In this document: positions 4,812 through 43,077 of the stretch, one piece after another | Numbering within the stretch: the stretch's first letter is position 1 | How the letters are laid out: each line of letters begins with the position of its first letter | Virus record (IMG/VR): IMGVR_UViG_3300031998_000008 | Span: 96,001-160,000 of that record | DNA from: a virus | Lineage: Duplodnaviria; Caudoviricetes | Length of the DNA stretch: 64,000 nt | Reading direction: 5' to 3' (one strand) | Position numbers and translations under genes: made by a program | Notes under the pieces: generated by a model | Database searches by the model: none | The model's input: the letters and a program-made list of their open reading frames with translations, nothing else | Told to the model about the DNA's origin: nothing

Positions 4812-5330
4812 TTATTCTTCTGCGAAACCTGCATATGGGTTGGTGTTCATTGCTGTACGTCTTCCTTGATATGCTTGATTTCTTGCTTGGTCAAGTGATT
4901 GTTTCTTTCCTTGGTATTTATCCCATTGTTTTTGTGTCTTACCCTTTGCCTTTGCAATTTCTTGTTGTCTTTGTGCTTCCAATGCTTGGATTTTTTGGTC
5001 GTATTTTGCATTGATTTGGTCAATTGCTGCTTGTGAGTTTTGGTTTACGTATTGAGTGCTATTTTGTCCATTTTGAACGCCATATTTTCCTTTAAGGTTT
5101 TCAATATCACCACGTGCTCTTTGTAATTGACGGTTATTGAAGTGTGCATTGTAGTTGCCACCTTTTGTGAAAGTGTCTTTTACAGCACCGAGTTTGTCTT
5201 TCATATTTCCAAAGAATCCTTCTTCCAATTCTTCATCACCGAAAGCGCCTTCAGCTAAAATTCTTTTAACTGATTCTGTAACTATTTGTTCAAGCTGAGA
5301 TTCGTTGAGATGTATGATTTCTTTTCCCAT
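4812..5330 (-). CDS. Putative internal head protein with targeting tag, Q-rich coiled coil
   Basis: N-terminal IHLNESQLEQIVTESVKRILAEG. Confidence 0.7.
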   Translation of the reverse strand: MGKEIIHLNESQLEQIVTESVKRILAEGAFGDEELEEGFFGNMKDKLGAVKDTFTKGGNYNAHFNNRQLQRARGDIENLKGKYGVQNGQNSTQYVNQNSQAAIDQINAKYDQKIQALEAQRQQEIAKAKGKTQKQWDKYQGKKQSLDQARNQAYQGRRTAMNTNPYAGFAEE

Positions 5331-21389: not shown

Positions 21390-23540
21390 TTAATCATTAA
21401 TTGTATCACCTGAGATACCATTTAAGTCGGAAATTGCTTCATTGATTAAAGTCTCACGATTTAATTCATCCTCATCAATCAATGTATCAATTTTATCACA
21501 AATATTTTTGATATTTTCTTGCAATGTTGCGTTCTTTATGTCGTAATCAATTACTTCTTCAACTCCATCGTTTTGCTTTTGGTTTTCTGAAAGCAAATCC
21601 ATGTATTCTTCAAATGATGATTTACGGCCTTTAGGGTATGCAATTTCTGCAAGCATATCAAAGTATTTGCTTGTAAATGTCTTTGCTATTCCTGATTTTC
21701 CATTTTCTCTTAAAATTTTCTTGTTAATTCTACGTGATTCCATCGGCATACCACTATCTGCATCAGGTGCTCCACCCATATCGGTTTCACCTGCTTCTCC
21801 ATTCATATCACCTTCCATGTCGGCTCCTGGTTCTCCAATATCCAATCCTTCATCACCCATATCACCGCCAATTGGTGCTCCGCCGAGGCCACCGCCTCCG
21901 CCACCCATTCCATCATCTTCTCCTTGTTGTGGCTGTTGTTGATTTGGATTGTGCATTGCGGCATAATCTCCGTAGATTCTATCTGTTATATCAAACATTC
22001 CTGTGTGCTTAATGATATTTGCTGTTGCTGCAAGTTCAGCAGCCATTGCTTTTTCAAGCCTTATTTCATTAAACATATCTTTGATTTCCGAATCGCTCAT
22101 CTTCATAATTTTCTTCAATGCTCTGTGCATTGACATCATAGGCATACCTGTTCCTGGGTCTGCAAGTGCTGTTTGCATTGCTGTTAAACGTTTTTGAAGG
22201 TCATCAAGTTCTTGCGATTCGATAAGAGTTGTAGGACTGTTCAATGTAAGCGAAAAATTGCCAATTTCATCTGCAAGGCCCATAATATACAAGTGAATCA
22301 TAGCAATCTTGTTAAGTTCCATCAACAAGAATTGTTGTATTCTATTAATCATTCTTGCAAATCTAATATCCATGAATGAAAGATTTTGTCCTTTACCTTG
22401 TGCTTCTTGGAAATTCAAGAAAGTCTTAGGGACTCTCATTGCAGCAAAAATCTTGTTTTGCATGTATTCAATATCTTCCATTTGGACTTGGCTATTAGCC
22501 GCTTGAAGAGTTTCGATTGGGTTTGGCGCATCTTCCCTTCTAACAGGGATGAAGTAGTCACTTGAAACATCCAAGAAATTCTTTCTCAAATCAACCTGGC
22601 CAGTCATTGGGTCAATGATTTGTGTTCTTTTGAAGTTGTTTGCAATCTCATTGATATATGCAGGAACGTCAGCATCATCAATAGCACCAACATAAACCTT
22701 ATAAACACGTCTCTCAATTGCTTTATCCAATCTCCAAATAAGCATTGCATCTTCCATCATTGACCACATTCTCCATGCTCTACGTGCTTTATGCAACATT
22801 GAAACACCATAAGGTAAGAAGAATGAGTCGTTTAACAATCTGAAGTGTGCAACCTGCCAATTAAAGTATGGATTATCTCCGTTGTGTCCTTTCCATACGA
22901 ACCTAATGTCATCAGGCTTAATTTCACTTGTTTGCTGAACAACTGTTTGTGTATATGTTGAGCCATATCCATTTTCTTCACGGTCAACTTCGTAAACAGG
23001 CATCATCATCCAACCCATGACACCGTTTGATTTGTCAATGTTCAATAACATGAATGTATTTCCATATTTTGTAACATGACGTGCAATCATGGGCAATTCT
23101 GTATAAATATGAAGCCTATTCACAAACAAATCTTCCAATATTGATTTTGTCCTTTGTGATTTTGAATATATATTAAGCATCATACCCTCTGAATTAATTG
23201 GGCATGCTTCCTCAGATATAATATCCAATGCAGAACCAATTTCACAAGTTCCATCCATTAAATCAGCATCACGGTACATCAATTTAACAGCGTTGTAACC
23301 CGCCAAACTTTCCATGGCGTTGTCAGCACCTGCTTTTTTCCATTGATATGCCAAATACTTTTGCTGCTTGAAAGTTTCTAACTTTCTTTCATATTCAGCC
23401 CTGTCGTTTGTGCTGAAAAGAACTTCGTTTCTTTCTTCATAGTTCTTTGATGTCACAACTGACTGAGGAACTTGGTTATTTGAAGGGCCCCTGAACACGT
23501 CAGTAAGCCTTTGAAATATAGTTTGATTGTTATTTGCCAT
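21390..23540 (-). CDS. gp20: Portal protein (T4 gp20-like)
   Basis: MMEDAMLIWRLDKAIERRVYKVYVG, DYFIPVR, IETL, EDIEY, DIRFARMINRIQ. Confidence 0.93.
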   Translation of the reverse strand: MANNNQTIFQRLTDVFRGPSNNQVPQSVVTSKNYEERNEVLFSTNDRAEYERKLETFKQQKYLAYQWKKAGADNAMESLAGYNAVKLMYRDADLMDGTCEIGSALDIISEEACPINSEGMMLNIYSKSQRTKSILEDLFVNRLHIYTELPMIARHVTKYGNTFMLLNIDKSNGVMGWMMMPVYEVDREENGYGSTYTQTVVQQTSEIKPDDIRFVWKGHNGDNPYFNWQVAHFRLLNDSFFLPYGVSMLHKARRAWRMWSMMEDAMLIWRLDKAIERRVYKVYVGAIDDADVPAYINEIANNFKRTQIIDPMTGQVDLRKNFLDVSSDYFIPVRREDAPNPIETLQAANSQVQMEDIEYMQNKIFAAMRVPKTFLNFQEAQGKGQNLSFMDIRFARMINRIQQFLLMELNKIAMIHLYIMGLADEIGNFSLTLNSPTTLIESQELDDLQKRLTAMQTALADPGTGMPMMSMHRALKKIMKMSDSEIKDMFNEIRLEKAMAAELAATANIIKHTGMFDITDRIYGDYAAMHNPNQQQPQQGEDDGMGGGGGGLGGAPIGGDMGDEGLDIGEPGADMEGDMNGEAGETDMGGAPDADSGMPMESRRINKKILRENGKSGIAKTFTSKYFDMLAEIAYPKGRKSSFEEYMDLLSENQKQNDGVEEVIDYDIKNATLQENIKNICDKIDTLIDEDELNRETLINEAISDLNGISGDTIND

Positions 23541-31046: not shown

Positions 31047-32987
31047 TTATCTAATTTCTTGTGGGTCCCATTGTACAAGACCATCAACTTTAACAGCTCC
31101 GTAGAATCTGTTGTTAACGCACTTCTTAGCGTATCTTGTCATGATACCCTTAACAGGTGCAAAGTTTTCAGGGTTGTAGATGGTTGGGGTCAATTGCATT
31201 GGGATATAAGGTGCATAGATGTAACCTGTATCCAATAATGATTTACCCTTATGACCGATAATTATTGACCATGCTGGTGAATATGGGTCTCTATAAACTT
31301 GGTATCTGTTTTGAAGAGCACCGATTCTTTCAATACCCATATTGTATTGGTCTGATTCAGCGTTAGCGTCTGAAACGTGGAAGTATTCCAAGTTATCGAA
31401 GACTGCTGAGATTTCTGATGACACAACGATGAAGTTAGCGCCACCTCTAAGAGTTGTCTTGTGGATTTGAGCTGAAACTTGGTTAATCTTAGTCATTAAC
31501 TCTTGGTTCCAGTCCTTTTGAGTATAGTTGGTTGAGAAACCAGCTTGTCTTCTCCATCCGTTGACATCCCATCTTGCTTGCCATGGAGCAAACTTTCTAA
31601 GGTCTCTAAGGATTTCACGGTCAATTTCAGCAGCGATTTGTTCTGACAAAAGTGCTGTCAATTCTGCTTCAGCGTCAATGTTATGGAAAGCACTAACGTC
31701 TTGTGCAAGTTCTGGTGACCATGTTGCTCTAAGTTTTCTTTCTTCAACTGCAACTGTTACGCTGTCAAGTTTGAAAGAAACTTCACCGATTTCAGTTTCA
31801 AGTTCTAATGAGTCGTATTGTGACCAAGCGACTGCGAACATTGATGGGTCAATTGTTTCAGTGTAGTCAATACCTTTGTAACCGTCTAATGAGTCACCTT
31901 GTTTCTTAACTGGTTTTGCCAAGTCAAGGTCAATAAGGATTGAACCGTCAGGTGTGCAGACGTTGTTGTATTCAACCATACCTTTACCGTATTTTTGTGA
32001 TACGACTCTGAATGGGATACCTTCGTATTGTTCGAATGTAGTGTTGCCACTTTCTGATTCGATTGCTTGGTTAGCATAGACTTTCAATGAAGCCAAGAAT
32101 GCTTCTGTGTCCATTTCGTTTCCATCAGGACCTGTTAATTTACCAGCGTTGAATGCTGAGAAACCTTTAACTTTAAGCATGATGTTTCTGATTGTACCAT
32201 CAGCATATGCTTGTGGTTTAACGTTTGTACCATCAATTTCAACTGGTTCAAAGTCAACCAACATAACAGGAGTTACATCGTTAGAAACTCTGATACGAAT
32301 CTTACCTTTTGAGTTGTCATACAAGAAGTCATTGTAGAACAAATCGTAAAGAGTTCTCTTGTTGTATTTTGTTACGTTTGGTGATTTTTGTCTTACGATA
32401 GCATTTTCAATTGTCATTGTTGCTTGAACTGCTTCATCGTAGTTAGTTGCATCAGCAACGTCTGTCCATGTAAGACCACCGTCTGTTGTGTATTCAAATG
32501 CCATTCCGTTGACTACTTCGTCAGGAAGATAGAAACGGTTGTAAGTGCTACCATTTCTTCTGTCTGTTCTTTCGTAGCCCATAAGACCTTTATGTCTGCC
32601 AACTGAACCGTCTTTAACACGGCCATTGTCATCCAAATAATCCCATTCTCTTTCGCTTGTTACAGGAAGCATGAAGAACAACTTACCAACAGGAAGGTTC
32701 ATAGCTTGAACTGAAACGATGTCATTAGCAAGAAGTTTACTGAAAACTCTTCTGATGATAGGGAAAACAACAGTTTCGAATGAACCGCTATTGTCTGATG
32801 CAGTAGCTTCTGAAAGAAGAGCCTTTGCTTCGTTTTCGTACAATGTAGCGATATTTTCCTTAACTATTCCCTTGAGGCCATCGACCATGCCAAGAGCAGA
32901 CCAACGGTCATTGATTTCTTTTCTAATTCTTTTCTGTTCATTGAGTTCGATATTACCCACTTGACCAGATGCTAAAAATTCTCTCAT
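31047..32987 (-). CDS. gp23: Major capsid protein (T4 gp23-like)
   Basis: PIIRRVF..DIVSVQAMNLPVG, RKLRATWSPELAQD, AEIDREI, GYIYAPYIP, KGIMTRY. Confidence 0.96.
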   Translation of the reverse strand: MREFLASGQVGNIELNEQKRIRKEINDRWSALGMVDGLKGIVKENIATLYENEAKALLSEATASDNSGSFETVVFPIIRRVFSKLLANDIVSVQAMNLPVGKLFFMLPVTSEREWDYLDDNGRVKDGSVGRHKGLMGYERTDRRNGSTYNRFYLPDEVVNGMAFEYTTDGGLTWTDVADATNYDEAVQATMTIENAIVRQKSPNVTKYNKRTLYDLFYNDFLYDNSKGKIRIRVSNDVTPVMLVDFEPVEIDGTNVKPQAYADGTIRNIMLKVKGFSAFNAGKLTGPDGNEMDTEAFLASLKVYANQAIESESGNTTFEQYEGIPFRVVSQKYGKGMVEYNNVCTPDGSILIDLDLAKPVKKQGDSLDGYKGIDYTETIDPSMFAVAWSQYDSLELETEIGEVSFKLDSVTVAVEERKLRATWSPELAQDVSAFHNIDAEAELTALLSEQIAAEIDREILRDLRKFAPWQARWDVNGWRRQAGFSTNYTQKDWNQELMTKINQVSAQIHKTTLRGGANFIVVSSEISAVFDNLEYFHVSDANAESDQYNMGIERIGALQNRYQVYRDPYSPAWSIIIGHKGKSLLDTGYIYAPYIPMQLTPTIYNPENFAPVKGIMTRYAKKCVNNRFYGAVKVDGLVQWDPQEIR

Positions 32988-34917: not shown

Positions 34918-35628
34918 TTAATCATTCAACCATGATGAAAATTTTCCTAATTCTTCAAAAATTTGGTTCTTTTCTGTTTCTTTGCTTTCAATATATTGCT
35001 GTGGAATTTGGTCTTCAGGTGTAATCCATGCTTGTGGGGTTGATGGGTCAGAAACAACGTCCCAACATACTATTTCGTAGTCATCGGCAACATATAGAAC
35101 ACCCATTTTATTCGTAACAGTACCAAGACCCCTTGAAGAGACACCAATTTTAATTCCTTGCAATATTAAGTTTGCAACTTGGTCCCCTTGACATGTAATC
35201 ATGCCATATTTTCTAAATCCTGGACTTGTTATTATTTCAAGTTTTCCAACCAATGTGTGGCCTTCCCAATGTAATTCAACAATATTGATTGCTACTCTTG
35301 AAAGGTCAATTACTGATTCGCTTGGGTGATTACATTCACCTATTGCACGTTTTTCGGCAATTTTTTCCATGTATTTTTGGACCTCACGTTTCAACACGTC
35401 TTCAGGATATATTCTTCCATTGGCGTTTTCTATTCCGAACTTTTGGAATACTGCTGAAACAATGAAAGGGTATGGGCAATGGAAATCATCGCTTACTTTT
35501 CCGTTGTTAATATCCTCGAAAAGTTTCTTGTTTTCTCCGATTTCAGGTGAAATATATCCATCGTGTTCAATAAGAAGACCAGTTCCCGTTTCACCACGTT
35601 TTATTTCTACTAAACTTCCTTTTGCCAT
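34918..35628 (-). CDS. gp21: Prohead core protease (T4 gp21-like)
   Basis: NANGRIYP, GECNHP, GVSSRGLG, WDVVSDPST. Confidence 0.93.
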   Translation of the reverse strand: MAKGSLVEIKRGETGTGLLIEHDGYISPEIGENKKLFEDINNGKVSDDFHCPYPFIVSAVFQKFGIENANGRIYPEDVLKREVQKYMEKIAEKRAIGECNHPSESVIDLSRVAINIVELHWEGHTLVGKLEIITSPGFRKYGMITCQGDQVANLILQGIKIGVSSRGLGTVTNKMGVLYVADDYEIVCWDVVSDPSTPQAWITPEDQIPQQYIESKETEKNQIFEELGKFSSWLND

Positions 35629-35630
35629 GA

Positions 35631-36797
35631 TTATAATTCGTTTTCGTTTATAAATTCATCAGTTATTATTGATTTATCAACTTTCATCTTGCTCATTCTG
35701 TCGGTAAATCTTGTATATTCAATGTCATCTTTAGCTTTTGCGCATATTTTTGACATTATTTGTCTTCCTTTTTTTGTTCTTGCAAACACTTCTTTCATCA
35801 AAAAATTGAATTTTTCGACATCAAGTGATGCTATTCTTCTTAATAAATAAGGTAATTCATCCAAAGTTAAGTCATTAAATGATTTTGACATAAGAAGCCA
35901 TAAACTTGGTCCTAATCTCATATCCCAAGGCTCTGCTTTAAGAAAATCTGACTTTCCGATGACTATTTCAGCCATTTTTTTGTTTTTTGGTAATCCGTGT
36001 GAAATGAACAATTCCATGAATCCACGTAATGTTTCACTAAGAAGAACAGGGAATATAACACCTTGTGCTGTTATTCTTACTTGTTCACCTTCATTACCAA
36101 ATTCAACATTAACAGTGCCTAATTGCTTTTTGTTTTCATCATCAATGCCTAAATCATCTGCCATATACATTGAATAATTGTTTAGGGCCAAAATCTTCAA
36201 ATAAAGAGTGCATAACTCAGGTGAAAATTTTGAAATACTATCCGCATATGAATCAATATCAGATGATAGAACTATTGCTTCACCCATGCACAATGCATCC
36301 AATATTCTTCTTTTGTATATTTCTCCACGAATACTTGAGGCCATTTCAACATCATCGAATTGGAAATCATCATCACCGTCAATCGGGTCAACAATTATTG
36401 ATTTTGCTGATAAATCAATTGTGTCTGACAATGAAACATTCAATTCAACAGAATCTTCAGGAACGTTGAAAGTGTCTATAACATAATTAACACAAAGTTT
36501 TTCAAGTTCGTTCCTATATGGCCTTTCTATTTCTTTACATTTGTTAATTAATTTAGCCAACATTGAATTTATTTCTGTATCTTCAAAGTCATCAATTTCT
36601 CCAATATTCAATAACACATTTTTAATGTCATCAAATCTGTTGTTGGCTATTTTCAAAAGAAATGGCATATCGTATATATCAGGAATTGCAGGATTATTAC
36701 CCAATGATGTTGTATTGTTTAGTAATGCCATTTTTACATCCTCAGGTAATGAATCTGACAAAATTCCTTCGTTTATATGTTCTTTGTTATCTATCAT
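35631..36797 (-). CDS. Head-module hypothetical protein
   Basis: 388 aa directly upstream of the protease; late motif; HINEG site. Confidence 0.75.
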   Translation of the reverse strand: MIDNKEHINEGILSDSLPEDVKMALLNNTTSLGNNPAIPDIYDMPFLLKIANNRFDDIKNVLLNIGEIDDFEDTEINSMLAKLINKCKEIERPYRNELEKLCVNYVIDTFNVPEDSVELNVSLSDTIDLSAKSIIVDPIDGDDDFQFDDVEMASSIRGEIYKRRILDALCMGEAIVLSSDIDSYADSISKFSPELCTLYLKILALNNYSMYMADDLGIDDENKKQLGTVNVEFGNEGEQVRITAQGVIFPVLLSETLRGFMELFISHGLPKNKKMAEIVIGKSDFLKAEPWDMRLGPSLWLLMSKSFNDLTLDELPYLLRRIASLDVEKFNFLMKEVFARTKKGRQIMSKICAKAKDDIEYTRFTDRMSKMKVDKSIITDEFINENEL

Positions 36798-36888: not shown

Positions 36889-37251
36889 TTATGCGTAAGG
36901 CTGACGTGGCTGACTTTTTGCCTTTTCTATTTCTCTGCAAACCCAATCATATACTTTAGGGTCTTGTCTTAAAAACTCTTTCATGTTTTCATCCCAATTG
37001 AAAAATCTATGCTGTCTTGCACGACTTACAATTTCTTGTGCCCTATCGTTGATAAGTTGTTGTGTTGATTGACTTATTTTAAACCCTCCATTTTGCTGTT
37101 GAGGCTGTTGTGGTTGCTGTTGCTGTGGCTGTTGTTTTCTACCCCAATTAAAAAGTCCTTCGTTTAATGATTTTTTTAATATTCTTTTTACTGACTCAGA
37201 AACAATTTCTTCCAATTGTTGCGGGGTTATTTGTACGGTTTGCTTACTCAT
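36889..37251 (-). CDS. Tagged Q-rich putative internal head protein
   Basis: QITPQQLEEIVSESVKRILKKSLNEG. Confidence 0.7.
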   Translation of the reverse strand: MSKQTVQITPQQLEEIVSESVKRILKKSLNEGLFNWGRKQQPQQQQPQQPQQQNGGFKISQSTQQLINDRAQEIVSRARQHRFFNWDENMKEFLRQDPKVYDWVCREIEKAKSQPRQPYA

Positions 37252-40200: not shown

Positions 40201-40499
40201 TTTTGTGGGTAAAGTGCATTGATGTATTTATCAGTTGTTAACTTTCCTTCAAAATAATATCTTGTAACACCTGCTAAATAATAATTTGACTCTAAAGACA
40301 AATTTCTTATGTTTGCTTCGTTTACAAATTTAGACAAAAGGAATTGTTTAAGTTGACTAATGTTTTGTATTGATGGGTTGTATTTTTGTACATACCCAAG
40401 GTATGGCATCAAAAGGTTGTCTCTTGAGCCCTCGTTTAACTTTTCCTTAAACTCTCTTATTACATTTGAAATTATATTATATGTTTTTTTACTATTCAC
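37266..40499 (-). CDS. Large multi-domain tagged protein with a WC[IT] domain (start revised to GTG at 40499)
   Basis: The track start crosses a terminator and promoter; GAWCITYG, DEYGNSLIAV..ITSRWNH; internal tags ILTRQQLNEVLKEE, MTKKELKES; basic C-terminal module. Confidence 0.75.
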   Translation of the reverse strand: MNSKKTYNIISNVIREFKEKLNEGSRDNLLMPYLGYVQKYNPSIQNISQLKQFLLSKFVNEANIRNLSLESNYYLAGVTRYYFEGKLTTDKYINALYPQKEDKFIPEICERLSALILVLRNAYIDSVGTQFEQPEDFGSLSLEKLLRKYNKAIDKELGIEPVKVPKEKVETLNRDNHVGNGYTFDILYSYDEARKYNSFTEPGAWCITYGEQHYNGYIRRLGIHYVIFRKDGFENIPRRKTEGWSYDKPQDEYGNSLIAVLQKNSSWEPTYITSRWNHGSSKDDSYCEADHAYTTDEFMRITGVNVDDLKRIFKIWQHDREKIESDAGNQRKIANKEKLDVLRIFKYAQMRMNGGNIKSAFGEFESRLDTVLTNTAKISAISQEALAARNSADGNEEEVLAKYGKMYDKALNNSVRSLLVTINDNTWACLIDGNKILFETIHKIDGWYRGDFTSPESKNGYYGLEASGYRNVILCSVGSSYMIYDTRNHKFVEVEGQKKFKFITRISTWEIDENNPDGFYEVKMTDKQLALIDINTNEPLVLPNGHSWMEDLQNGHHSYGRSVQTEFISPSKNILHIIYDSSAREDYWYDMPTRHFFNINELIGNYESIQIDSSFPYGLTLITSYDSGTHKNFLIRKERLVELNGISEFLSVKHANGPLFVYRPIGHGTGDVIYDIETGQSYEVPQIDGKIPSFLRGGDRLIQFNITYRNSLGKQEVMFFSTKGRVWLKNPLNGQLNFILYGINADTGHVDIYDDNLHMHELKLTENENEFTIKERTMYENKNVKRVILTRQQLNEVLKEENTTTVQLNTTGNTIPAVTNTVLNNTPEINNASKYGDVNLHISNQKLNGSNDTVPTQHVEVERGQNINQAIQQQVNPTVLSDGGDIEVSGDGISEHKCFSKKQIEEARLKKIHEGHKMTKKELKESFDTDEQWAHEIKMFMDGLRRGDYLLDGDTLYVEIFRGQTAENDPRYAYIRKGENRLHDDHFYMQDSPTLSDSQLKDIYYNAGWEDMLPELIDYNGFEMYESKIEIKPENKGKFNATKEKTGKSTEELTHSKNPLTRKRAIFAQNAKKWNKK

Positions 40500-40515
40500 T
40501 AAGAAATATTTTATA

Positions 40516-40524
40516 ATAAATAGT
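40516..40524 (-). promoter_or_regulatory. Putative late promoter motif
   Basis: ACTATTTAT 16 nt before the GTG at 40499. Confidence 0.7.
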
Positions 40525-40534
40525 TTTGGGCAAT

Positions 40535-40565
40535 AAAAAAACGAGCGCTTTTTCAAACGCTCGTT
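40535..40565 (-). terminator. Terminator
   Basis: A7CGAGCG/CGCTCGTT. Confidence 0.8.
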
Positions 40566-40585
40566 CACGTATAATGTTCTTAGTT

Positions 40586-41225
40586 TTAGTCAAATTTTGG
40601 AGAACTGAAAGGTGAATTGTTTGGCTTTGATTGTTTTTTAGGTAACTCTTTTCTGCTTTTATCCATTAATTCATCTTGTGTTGGTCCCAAGTTTTCTTGT
40701 ATCATGTTTAATTGCTTTTTTGTAAAGATAACTTGTTCCATCATTGGTGGTTGTTCATCACCTTGTGCCATATCATCACCATTTTGTGTCTCATCTCTAC
40801 TTAACATACTTTCAGCATATGACCTAACAGCTTCTCTATCTTCGTCTGATAATTGGTTTATTATTGACATTGTATCATCAGAGCCTTCTCCTGCTGTGTT
40901 CGGGTCTTCTCCCATTGGTCCACCGTCCATTTGTTCATCATCTCCCATTGTTCCACCTGCATTTGGGTCATCCATTGGTGCATCACCCATTGGTCCACCC
41001 GCATTTGGGTCATCCATTGGCGCATCACCCATAGGGCCACCTGCGTTTGGGTCATCCATTGGTGCGCCTCCCATTGCATTAGGGTCGCCACCCATCATTG
41101 GGTCTTGTGAAAAAGAAGCATCATCTATAGGAGGTTGTTGAGCATTTCCTCCTGTAGACGATGCATTATTTAATTTTAAGAACGTTTTTTCGTCAACTGA
41201 ATTTTCAGTTAATCCTCTTTTTTTT
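40586..41225 (-). CDS. Acidic repeat protein segment, probably the -1 frameshift extension of 41209..43008
   Basis: Frame stays open from the A9 run (about 41225) through the ATG at 41098 to the stop at 40586; tag IFTKKQLNMIQE. Confidence 0.6.
40945..41070 (-). repeat. 42-bp tandem repeat (APMDDPNAGGPMGD x about 3)
   Basis: Repeated in both protein and DNA. Confidence 0.85.
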
Positions 41226-41226
41226 T
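41193..41226 (-). other. Candidate programmed -1 frameshift signal
   Basis: mRNA U AAA AAA AAA GAGGA, then hairpin UUAACUGA-AAAU-UCAGUUGA. Confidence 0.55.
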
Positions 41227-43008
41227 ATTTTCGCCTTCAATCGGAATACCTTTCTTTAATTGGTACATAACATCTTTAGTGACTGCATTTACCAATTGTG
41301 TGAATGGGTCGCCATCACCAATTTTGCTACCAAATGGTTCTTCGCTGTGAACACTGTCATCGTTCCAGTCTCTACCCCATTGATTTTGGTCTTCACCTGT
41401 TGTTGGTAATTGCATAGGTTGCTTTCTGTAACCAGGGTGTTTACCGAAAACATGAAGTTCATCTTCTTTTAAGATTCTCTTAACAACTGATTCAACGATT
41501 CTGTCCATTCTTTGTCTCTTTGCTTCCATCATTGGTTCTTCCTCAGTGTCTTCTTCACCGCCAAAATCTTCTTCGCCACCGAAATTTTCTTCACCGCCGA
41601 AGTCTTCTTCACCGCCAAAGTCTTCGCCACCAAAGTCTTCACCACCTTCGAAATCTTCTTCACCACCGAAGTCTTCTTCACCACCGAAGTCTTCTTCGCC
41701 ACCGAAATCTTCTTCACCACCTAAATCGTCAGTTTCATCTCCATTGATTTGTGCTTTCAATGCTTCCAATTCTGCTTTTAATGATTCGATTTCTGCTCTC
41801 AAGTCTTCGTCACCTGTTTCTTCATCACCTAATTCTTCATCACCTTCAAAGTTTTCTTCATCACCGAAGTCTTCACCACCCTCTTCATCTGAAAATTCAT
41901 CATCAAGGCCAGCGTCAAAATCAGTATCTGTTGAAGCGTCACCATCTTCTGAATCAAAATCATCGTTATTCAAGTCGAAGTCTTCACCATCTTCTTCAGA
42001 ACCGTTAGCTTCTAATGATTCATCACCATTACCATCATCGTCTGAATTGAAGTCATCTTCTTCACCTTCGTTTATTGAGTTGTTGAATGGGTCGTTGTTA
42101 TGGTCTGTGTCAGGTTCTCCTATACCTGCTGAACTTGGTAAGCCTTCATCCCATTCAGTTGTTTCTTCGTTTACATTTTTTTGGCCATCCATTTCCCAGC
42201 CTACTTGTTTTGGGTCTCTACCTTTACCTATTCCCTCTGTTCCCCAATTTTCTGTGTTAGGCATCAATGGGTTGTCACCAATATCACCCGCTTCTTCGTT
42301 GCAGTTCTTGCAAGTGCATGGGTTGTTGCCGCATTTTTCACAGCAAGTGTTTTCGTTTACTGATGATGGCTTTTGATTGAATGGTCCACTTGTTTGTTTT
42401 TCATGTGGATTGTTTCCATTGAATCCTTTAACATCGTCTTGTTCAACAACCTTTGCTTCAGTACCATCGTTTATTGAATTTCCATTTTTCTTTGGAGTTT
42501 CTGGATTTGTACCACTGAACTTAACAACACCGTCTTTATTTGAAGCACCGATTTCGTTTGCTTCATTCATAATCATTGAAGCGTTGTACATGATTTGTCT
42601 TTGACGTGCAATTTCATTTCTCATCCTATCAGTACCTTCAACCAAGAATTCTTCTTTCTTGAATGGGTCCAAAGTAGCGATGTTTACATTGCCTTCACAA
42701 GCCTCATTAATTGAAGCAAGTTTAAGTTCAAAGTTCTTCAAAGCATTTGCATAACTCTTGTATTCATAGTTTCCTCTGTTGCAGAAACCGCCAAGATAAT
42801 CATATGCTTCAGCTACCATTTCCTTATCCTTAGGTGCTGATTTGATATAATATTTATTGCATTCTCTAATAATACCATAGCTCTTGCCATCTGCTGCAAT
42901 TGCGTGATATTCTAATGTGTGACTTTTAAAGTCATTGCCTTCGTTTAATTCTTTACCATAAGTGTAAAGTCCTTTCATTCTGGCAATTGTTTCTTCAAAA
43001 TTTGACAT
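41209..43008 (-). CDS. Highly acidic prohead-core/internal protein
   Basis: GGEEDF repeats, many [LIVM]xE sites, tag RIVESVVKRILKED; late-motif variant at 43051-43059. Confidence 0.75.
   Translation of the reverse strand: MSNFEETIARMKGLYTYGKELNEGNDFKSHTLEYHAIAADGKSYGIIRECNKYYIKSAPKDKEMVAEAYDYLGGFCNRGNYEYKSYANALKNFELKLASINEACEGNVNIATLDPFKKEEFLVEGTDRMRNEIARQRQIMYNASMIMNEANEIGASNKDGVVKFSGTNPETPKKNGNSINDGTEAKVVEQDDVKGFNGNNPHEKQTSGPFNQKPSSVNENTCCEKCGNNPCTCKNCNEEAGDIGDNPLMPNTENWGTEGIGKGRDPKQVGWEMDGQKNVNEETTEWDEGLPSSAGIGEPDTDHNNDPFNNSINEGEEDDFNSDDDGNGDESLEANGSEEDGEDFDLNNDDFDSEDGDASTDTDFDAGLDDEFSDEEGGEDFGDEENFEGDEELGDEETGDEDLRAEIESLKAELEALKAQINGDETDDLGGEEDFGGEEDFGGEEDFGGEEDFEGGEDFGGEDFGGEEDFGGEENFGGEEDFGGEEDTEEEPMMEAKRQRMDRIVESVVKRILKEDELHVFGKHPGYRKQPMQLPTTGEDQNQWGRDWNDDSVHSEEPFGSKIGDGDPFTQLVNAVTKDVMYQLKKGIPIEGENKKKED
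41548..41722 (-). repeat. Imperfect 18-bp tandem repeat (GGEEDF x about 10)
   Basis: (gaa)gtcttcttcaccacc units on the + strand. Confidence 0.9.
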
Positions 43009-43077
43009 ATTATTTGATTGTTTTTAATCTATTATTTTCCTTTTTTTCATATAAATAGCATTGAAAATGAAAAAAAA

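Follow-up and report, generated by a model that had tools for sequence, protein, structure and literature searches.

A conserved run of nine adenines as a probable recoding site between an acidic head-module gene and a start-less reading frame in uncultured giant phages

The window analysed here, a stretch of 64,000 nucleotides (nt), comprises bases 96001-160000 of IMG/VR virus record IMGVR_UViG_3300031998_000008 (Duplodnaviria; Caudoviricetes). Its source is an uncultured giant rumen phage, whose record is 207.9 kb long, rated 56% complete and about 33% GC. On the minus strand of the window, a gene for an acidic protein of 599 amino acids (aa) ends in ...GGC GAA AAT AAA AAA AAA GAG GAT TAA, and the run of nine A's (A9) in these last codons is the only entrance to a second open reading frame (ORF), which lies in the -1 frame (Table 1). 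Closed directly before the run, the -1 frame reads KKRGLTENSVDEKTFLKLNNASSTGGNAQQPPIDDASFSQDP MMGG... after it and meets no stop down to position 40586, running on the way into a listed ORF of 170 aa (40586..41098). The codons ahead of its first ATG encode KKRGLTENSVDEKTFLKLNNASS...DDASFSQDP, and this ATG, at 41098, is the earliest ATG, GTG or TTG in the frame past the run. With one inserted A (A10) the same DNA would read KKKRGLTEN... on to 40586, and the predicted long form has 807 aa, made up of residues 1-597 of the acidic protein and 210 residues of the -1 frame.

A preliminary description made from the letters alone had proposed that a short form (599 aa) and a long form (about 810 aa) arise through a -1 event at this site. 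Its account of the layout holds in every detail: its coordinates for the run (41218-41226) and the end of the 599-aa ORF are confirmed on the minus-strand sequence, the -1 frame is open for 212 codons into the 40586..41098 ORF, the bridge between the run and 41098 has no start codon and contains the LTE site (41212-41204), and the length of the long form comes close to the computed 807 aa. Since A/T runs of at least nine occur 12 times in the 208-kb genome, the run alone is not beyond chance; the A9 at the junction is the genome's only such run with long open frames on either side. The only other run of this length that touches a long ORF lies outside the window, at G000:C1:195200-195208. It is a T9 in the sense of a 197-codon ORF, five codons before the stop, and is followed by open frames of 56 and 62 codons.

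Table 1. Features of the junction, its transcription unit and the head module, in window coordinates.
Feature	Position	Strand	Basis
0-frame ORF, 599-aa acidic putative "carrier" protein	41209..43008	minus	ORF translation
A9 run, putative slip site; AAA AAA AAA in the 0 frame, including the in-phase heptamer A_AAA_AAA	41218..41226	minus	
TAA closing the -1 frame directly before the run	41225..41227	minus	
0-frame stop TAA, two codons past the run	41209..41211	minus	
-1-frame ORF, 212 codons and stop, entered only via the run	40586..41224	minus	
LTE, [LIV]xE site of T4 gp21 type, three residues past the junction	41204..41212	minus	
Hairpin, 8 bp, loop AAAU, 5 nt past the run; 5' arm covers the 0-frame stop	41193..41212	minus	
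EKTFLKL bridge motif, conserved as E(K/R)(K/T)(V/F)(L/I)K(L/I), ahead of any start codon	41171..41191	minus	alignment
First ATG of the -1 frame, codon 42; start taken by ORF lists and gene callers	41096..41098	minus	
Exact TATTTATA; candidate late promoter, 42 nt ahead of the 599-aa ORF	43050..43057	minus	
Intrinsic terminator, 12-bp stem then T run, past the second ORF	40539..40566	minus	
Prohead protease gene, Peptidase_S77, 236 aa, T4 gp21 family	34918..35628	minus, as 599-aa gene	PF03420, 4.5e-28
Major capsid gene, Gp23-type	31047..32987	minus, as 599-aa gene	PF07068 match, 5e-74
Portal gene, T4-type	21390..23540	minus, as 599-aa gene	PF07230

The 599-aa protein has a net charge of -103, GGEEDF repeats, a short coiled coil and a conserved C-terminal region, and it is mostly disordered in its AF2 model (mean pLDDT 46.5). 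Residues 21-24 are LNE/G (the stroke marks the presumptive cut), with N22 and E23 invariant. Its homologues number more than 681 and range from 540 to 723 aa, none of them being near 800 aa, and among the 120 best, 118 have KKK plus one or two residues as their C-terminus. The -1 product is rich in P, M, G and D (net charge -25), with one confident helix pair in AF2 and the rest disordered, and its conserved motifs are MSIINQLSDEDREAVRSYAESML, PMMEqVIFTKKQL and SPFSSPKF. A profile search of 1.84 billion representatives places it in a family of 316 clusters, in most of which the annotated protein begins no earlier than profile positions 25-38, at the first Met. Natural in-frame fusions of about 800 aa were absent from a search for longer proteins containing the -1 product, which yielded just two family members, of 402-406 aa, each with an inserted domain. 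One JGI homologue, P0012, is annotated as continuing past the TGA that follows the run (…KKKVDWMKIQ); for that contig the caller had evidently applied a code in which TGA is Trp. Neither ORF has a match in Pfam or PHROGs; the PDB profile search returned noise only, megablast and tblastn against GenBank phages (50,697 records) found no match, and the BFVD fold search gave uncharacterised relatives only.

Signals of transcription surround the two frames as a pair. No copy of the candidate late promoter TATTTATA occurs on the minus strand from 40586 to 43008, and no late-type motif lies between the two ORFs, as the preliminary description had said of the bridge. With this octamer upstream of the 599-aa ORF, no such motif between the ORFs and a terminator after the second, the two frames appear to form one transcription unit. 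The octamer is present in 17 copies, against 8.3 expected.

The evidence that the run matters comes from its relatives. From viral and metagenome contigs, all of them metagenome assemblies, we collected 74 related loci with 54 distinct junction sequences, which group into 24 lineages when the cut-off is 60% identity of the -1 product and into 11 when it is 50%. The run is A9 in 46 of these junctions, A10 in six, A11 in one and A12 in one; its minimum is nine, with no run of seven or eight A's among the 54. The base immediately 5' of it is T in 53 of 54 junctions, and in the remaining one TG-A10 gives TGA; a stop directly ahead of the run shuts the -1 frame in 53 of 54, L079 with its A12 being the only one offset. 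The base 3' of the run is G in all 46 A9 junctions, and a 0-frame stop lies 3 or 6 nt past every A9 run. Counting all run lengths, this stop is 1-6 nt (one or two codons) away in 51 of 54, the exceptions being the clade of L078-L080. A -1 shift is required in 52 of 54 junctions, after which the -1 frame, where the contig allows, is 158-245 codons long, and in 53 of 54 a stop in the third frame comes 3-24 nt on. The phase of the heptamer A_AAA_AAA is retained in 46 of 46 A9 and four of six A10 junctions. Altogether, run, phase, near stop and open -1 frame persist in 52 of 54 junctions, down to about 35% protein identity, and this conservation of the run is far beyond chance. The conservation extends to synonymous positions: in every lineage all three Lys codons at the run are AAA, a codon used for only 58% of lysines in the rest of these genes, where T accounts for 46% of the non-A third positions. 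What is conserved in the run and its 5' T is therefore the nucleotide sequence. The preliminary description had named homologues without the slippery site as grounds for abandoning its proposal, and none was found, since every distinct junction has at least nine A's. Of the features that it wished to see conserved in relatives, the A-run and the frame offset are, whereas the hairpin is not universal.

The same data bear on the most trivial explanation, a homopolymer error of sequencing or assembly, or a recent pseudogene, the true gene being a single ORF of 807 codons. Homopolymers are error-prone, and one relative (L078) is indeed in frame. Yet A9 with the same offset recurs in 46 distinct junctions, on which independent assemblies from many projects and samples agree; the 0-frame stop stands one or two codons past the run in 51 of 54 junctions and the -1 stop just before it in 53 of 54; and 118 of the 120 best database homologues end at the same point. 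We regard such an error as extremely improbable. Two points nonetheless weigh against reading the conservation wholly in terms of recoding: that of KKK could partly reflect a need at the protein level, and the A10-A12 variation among metagenome assemblies could in part be homopolymer error.

The bridge behaves as protein-coding sequence. In an alignment of 32 -1 products, an [LIV]xE site lies within 12 residues of the junction in all 32 family members, and two further motifs follow it ahead of any start codon, first E(K/R)(K/T)(V/F)(L/I)K(L/I), then APS...GAS. Pairwise differences by codon position ahead of the first ATG (0.45, 0.32 and 0.56) have the pattern of those in the undisputed C-terminal part (0.45, 0.39 and 0.63), and the first Met varies in position, lying anywhere from alignment column 23 to column 85. 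Judged by these patterns, the peptide ahead of the first Met evolves like coding sequence.

This has to be set against the annotation that gene callers give, in which there is no recoding, the downstream ORF is a separate gene beginning at ATG 41098, and KKK is simply a conserved lysine tail. Most of the 316 clusters are made to start at the first Met in this way, and in some lineages the downstream protein is free-standing, with its own start. Translation initiation of the Bacteroidota type works without a Shine-Dalgarno sequence, and with initiation of that type an internal ATG would need none. A separate gene, however, does not account for a -1 frame that has TAA or TGA immediately ahead of the run and opens precisely there in 53 of 54 junctions (only L079 being offset), for 25-40 codons before the first Met that are conserved as protein with a coding pattern of codon positions, or for a first Met whose own position drifts. 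Neither start codon nor late motif is found between the ORFs, and a lysine tail would not require all three codons to be AAA in every lineage when 58% are so elsewhere. We therefore consider a separate gene quite unlikely as the whole explanation, although an additional free product of 170 aa may be made from the internal ATG, which would qualify the two-protein picture.

The free-standing genes speak to the same question. Where the downstream protein has its own Met (P0170, P0129 and P0212), it also has a leader like MIINEEQIHRIVAESLKRILSE-KKVIKIP, the leader ending in LSE before KKVIKIP. No such leader precedes the -1 ORF of the window, whose effective beginning is the [LIV]xE-KKV motif, a difference that counts against its being a free-standing gene. 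The helix of the leader resembles residues ~503-513 of the 599-aa protein, and also the N-termini of two small ORFs of the window. A scan of viral contigs with the free-standing forms returned only loci of the frameshift type.

Junction conservation, the coding bridge and the KKK ends thus strongly support the two forms, of 599 and ~810 aa, and the -1 event of the preliminary description. In our judgement the A9 run is very probably a programmed recoding site through which one late transcription unit would give two proteins: standard decoding would yield the 599-aa acidic protein, and a one-base slip on the run the 807-aa form. If so, a single late gene of abundant rumen and gut phages makes two proteins, and several hundred database clusters of this giant-phage family would carry a wrong, internal start annotation.

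Natural variants at the run are informative about where the heterogeneity arises. In the most distant clade, L078-L080, near-identical genomes differ in run length. In L078, with A11, the frame continues through the junction without a shift; L079, 1.2% different from it with no indels elsewhere, has A12 and a 0-frame stop 10 nt past the run; and L080, 3.2% different, has A10 and a 0-frame stop 21 nt past the run. With L078 in frame and its near-identical relatives differing at the run, the fused protein appears to be a legitimate product. Moreover, three different frame corrections would be needed in these genomes, so that both products would be made by all three only with length-heterogeneous mRNA.

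Such variation also invites the explanation that the run is a contingency locus at the DNA level, where DNA polymerase slippage toggles A9 and A10 in the phage population, so that the fusion would be encoded by some genomes and the short form by others. Phage homopolymer contingency loci have been reported, and bet-hedging by them has been proposed for T2 and T4 (bioRxiv 10.1101/2025.10.21.683753). The likeness is that a homopolymer in a phage gene controls the frame and that its length varies in L078-L080, genomes that differ by 1-3% yet have A11, A12 and A10. However, length polymorphism between close genomes is confined to these three, and 46 of 46 A9 junctions are in the same split state across deep divergence and in independent assemblies, with no close relative fused. 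This uniformity suggests that purifying selection maintains genomes able to make both forms rather than ones that switch, and a contingency locus seems to us highly unlikely. Compared with the loci of Gomez, Barrick and Waters (2025), the DNA state in the A9 clades is fixed, which would place the origin of diversity there at the level of RNA or protein.

If the run is a recoding site, the slip could be made by RNA polymerase or by the ribosome. Polymerase slippage on the nine A's, the element universal to the family, would add one A to a share of the transcripts, and normal translation of these would give the fusion. Bacterial RNA polymerase slips efficiently on runs of nine A or T, and for E. 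coli ribosomes A_AAA_AAA is less shift-prone than A_AAA_AAG (review PMC5009743). Three features expected of a transcriptional slippage site are found here: an A/T run of at least nine, one inserted base that joins two conserved open frames, and a run length conserved beyond coding need. That every lineage has at least nine A's, although a heptamer would serve ribosomes, favours the polymerase, and the constant length fits slippage, which the preliminary description had offered as its alternative, at least as well as ribosomal frameshifting. Slips to the remaining frame would give products like the short form, since that frame stops within 3-24 nt.

The case for the ribosome rests largely on structure downstream of the run. 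In the window, the hairpin UUAACUGA-AAAU-UCAGUUGA has a predicted energy of -7.0 kcal/mol (z = -3.9), and none of 200 dinucleotide shuffles folds as well. Within the window's clade, a hairpin beginning 3-6 nt past the run and covering the 0-frame stop recurs in differing sequences: L023 has 7 bp and a GAAA loop, L063 has 9 bp, and L036 has 6 bp and is set apart from L023 by two compensatory pair changes. Across the family, 22 of 45 distinct junctions have more stable folding in the 48 nt past the run than their synonymous-codon randomisations (P <= 0.05), where about two would be expected, and 12 reach P <= 0.01. As the RNA past the run is not yet made when the polymerase is on it, this structure must act later, and the selected hairpins of roughly half of the lineages, those of the window's clade among them, speak for a ribosomal contribution. 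In a second clade the hairpin has 8-11 bp, lies about 15 nt past the run and is formed from ED...VL codons (P ~0.01 each), and a third clade has no downstream hairpin.

The hairpin of the second clade occurs at loci L030-L033, L044, L047, L049, L055, L056 and L065 and has a purine-rich loop of 9 nt. Its arms are formed by the bridge-motif codons for E-D/G/N and V-L, with the rare codons GTC and CTC, and it covaries between lineages. Its distance from the run is beyond the classic geometry of frameshift stimulation.

Several of these structural results count against a family-wide role for the ribosome. The window's own hairpin is marginal when judged by synonymous randomisation (P = 0.09); downstream structure is absent in about one third of lineages and about 15 nt away in others; and no single stimulator model fits all lineages. 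We rejected a single stimulatory hairpin for the whole family on the ground that clades have a different, a distant or no hairpin. Of the "classic" stimulator of the preliminary description, the part that stands is that the hairpin is real, with compensatory changes in the window's clade; its universality does not stand. Upstream of the run, no nascent-RNA hairpin was found (mean z = +0.2 over 45 nt), one that polymerase slippage does not need, nor any conserved purine-rich, Shine-Dalgarno-like stimulator of the dnaX type in the 30 nt upstream across lineages.

In its strict form, the ribosomal explanation holds that transcripts are faithful A9 copies and that the fusion comes entirely from hairpin-stimulated -1 frameshifting on A_AAA_AAA. 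The in-phase heptamer, the 5-nt spacer and the 8-bp hairpin of the window are what it would predict, as are the conserved phase of the run, the compensatory changes in the window's clade and the excess of structure over synonymous randomisation in 22 of 45 junctions. It leaves unexplained why 54 of 54 junctions have nine or more A's when seven would do, and it relies on a heptamer that is weaker than A_AAA_AAG in E. coli, on a run where the polymerase slips efficiently anyway (PMC5009743). Further difficulties are the lineages, about one third, in which hairpins are absent, those in which they start ~15 nt past the run, the want of a conserved upstream Shine-Dalgarno-like element, and L079, whose A12 would need a +1 or -2 rather than a -1 shift. 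This purely ribosomal account is in our view rather unlikely.

We thus see the run as the universal signal, with polymerase slippage the likeliest common route, a view we hold with middling confidence. Slippage may well be the main source of the fusion, to go by the sequence patterns; ribosomal frameshifting could instead be the main source, with a lower probability, and the two acting together is quite possible. Frameshifting probably contributes in the window's clade, where a -1 shift on A_AAA_AAA, aided by the hairpin 5 nt downstream, would add to slippage. With a run that is invariant and a hairpin that depends on the clade, the site offers a clean natural test case for polymerase slippage versus ribosomal frameshifting.

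Recoding on poly-A is known from Thermus dnaX, Citrobacter and Yersinia tssM (PMC4256274), Shigella secretion genes and insertion sequence (IS) elements. A close parallel in design is dnaX of Thermus thermophilus, which encodes tau and gamma: there too the run is of exactly nine, a mixed mRNA gives two proteins in a set ratio (PMC5009743), and stops lie close by in the unused frames, as the stop of the third frame does here (3-24 nt, 53 of 54). The long form of Thermus dnaX is, however, the 0-frame product, and slippage truncates it, whereas here slippage would extend the protein into a start-less ORF. Thermus dnaX is also a bacterial replication gene in which slippage has been demonstrated, while ours is a phage head-module gene for which we infer it. 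In tssM of Citrobacter rodentium and Yersinia, poly-A precedes a stop, extra A's restore the C-terminal domain, and the building of a phage-tail-like machine depends on the two length variants and on their ratio (PMC4256274). That run is A11 rather than A9, in the gene of a bacterial membrane protein, and the split looks like a rescued interruption; the one described here is ancient and family-wide, in at least 24 lineages.

Ribosomal -1 systems resemble the locus in other respects. The lambda tail chaperone G/GT, the T7 capsid proteins 10A/10B, the major head protein of Lactobacillus phage A2 and the A_AAA_AAG site of E. coli dnaX share with it the in-phase heptamer, 5-nt spacer and hairpin (PMC5009743, PMC10885494). 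In the phage systems assembly requires a C-terminal extension produced at a fixed ratio, the products at our locus being predicted from sequence. They differ from it in that every lineage here has a run two bases longer than a heptamer, the stimulator differs between clades or is missing, and the gene is of the acidic prohead-core type. A literature search found no paper on recoding in prohead-core type genes or in this gene family. The trick of recoding is thus known; the gene family that carries it is previously undescribed.

What the two proteins might do is suggested by their surroundings. The 599-aa gene is encoded beside the Peptidase_S77 protease and the Gp23-type capsid gene, on the same strand as these, the portal gene, the large terminase gene and a scaffold-like ORF of 597 aa. 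It is flanked on one side by a 791-aa multi-domain protein that resembles a leader-tagged cargo polyprotein, and on the other by the genes leading to the protease. Motifs of the LNE/G type occur near the N-termini of the 599-aa protein, a 120-aa ORF, a 388-aa ORF and, if it starts from GTG 40499, the next large ORF. In the long ORFs of the 208-kb genome, [LIVM]NEG is found six times, four of them in head-module proteins, where three are near the N-terminus (residues 8, 29 and 21) and one is internal (residue 312); the ORFs of the window that bear it are 35631..36797, 36889..37251 and 41209..43008. [LIVM]NEG is likely to be the preferred site of the prohead protease, to judge by this distribution. 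Potential cleavage sites are thus found at the borders of both parts of the fusion, LNE/G near the N-terminus and [LIV]xE past the junction in 32 of 32.

From these features we infer that the 599-aa protein is a carrier of the prohead-core type. The assignment to the head made in the preliminary description is backed by gene position and processing motifs, with no support from homology. Indeed, searches of Pfam, PHROGs, PDB profiles and BFVD gave no homology to T4 core proteins, a point against the assignment; specifically, neither gp22, gp67, gp68, the internal proteins (IPs) nor Alt of T4 was matched in the PHROG, Pfam and PDB profile searches, and BFVD returned uncharacterised proteins only.

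In T4, gp21 cleaves short targeting peptides off the internal proteins and also cuts proteins of the core (PMC5694885). By analogy, the extension would be carried into the prohead as a tail on the acidic carrier, in set ratio, and a T4-type head protease would cut after the conserved [LIV]xE (LTE, after E602), releasing a disordered internal protein of 205 residues. The position of an [LIV]xE directly past the junction in every lineage suggests such loading followed by cleavage. In the internal proteins of T4 and in Alt, likewise, a targeting part is followed by [LIV]xE, and cutting by the Peptidase_S77-type protease frees the cargo in the head (PMC5694885), which for our phages is read from sequence; the free-standing members of the family, with a short N-terminal leader ending in LSE, are similar in this. 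The difference is that the "leader" at the junction is a 597-residue protein joined by recoding, instead of a peptide of 10-20 residues.

We tentatively propose that the A-run could act as a "loading port", by which a start-less cargo ORF is made only as a transframe tail on a prohead-core carrier, its stoichiometry thereby being fixed, and is freed by the head protease at [LIV]xE. The tail would be made by polymerase slippage and, in some clades, ribosomal frameshifting as well; lineages would have switched between the port and an N-terminal leader; and some cargo would contain inserts flanked by protease sites (P0121 and P0122). Were this carrier-cargo reading true, the system would load a fixed share of an internal protein into the capsid without a leader of its own, which would bear on how giant-phage heads are assembled and stocked. 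A possible use would be the packaging of foreign proteins into phage capsids.

P0121 and P0122 are homologues of the -1 ORF with 402-406 aa. Between the YAESML helix and the VIFTKKQL motif they have an insert of about 200 residues, which is bordered, like a cargo cassette, by LNEG/MNEG and VNE sites; by its sequence, the insert fits a modular cargo.

A helix motif, QLExIVxESVKRIL, is found at the N-termini of two minus-strand ORFs of the window, 4812..5330 and 36889..37251, and in similar form inside the 599-aa protein (~503-513) and in the leaders of P0129, P0170 and P0212. On the strength of these occurrences it is a candidate capsid-targeting helix.

Exact copies of TATTTATA, the candidate late promoter, stand 14-49 nt upstream of many minus-strand late genes, the minus-sense copies being at 43050, 45473, 46103, 30976, 28469, 26549, 24699 and 21375. 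The T4 late promoter TATAAATA in sense orientation before ORFs was also considered and rejected, the enriched orientation being its reverse, TATTTATA. Finally, the next large ORF (1100 aa, minus strand) is listed from GTG 40568, where it overlaps the terminator (window 40497-40568). A start at the GTG of 40499-40497, 16 nt past TATTTATT (40522-40515), is more likely, and with that start residues 21-24 of the protein are LNE/G, the same position as in the 599-aa protein.

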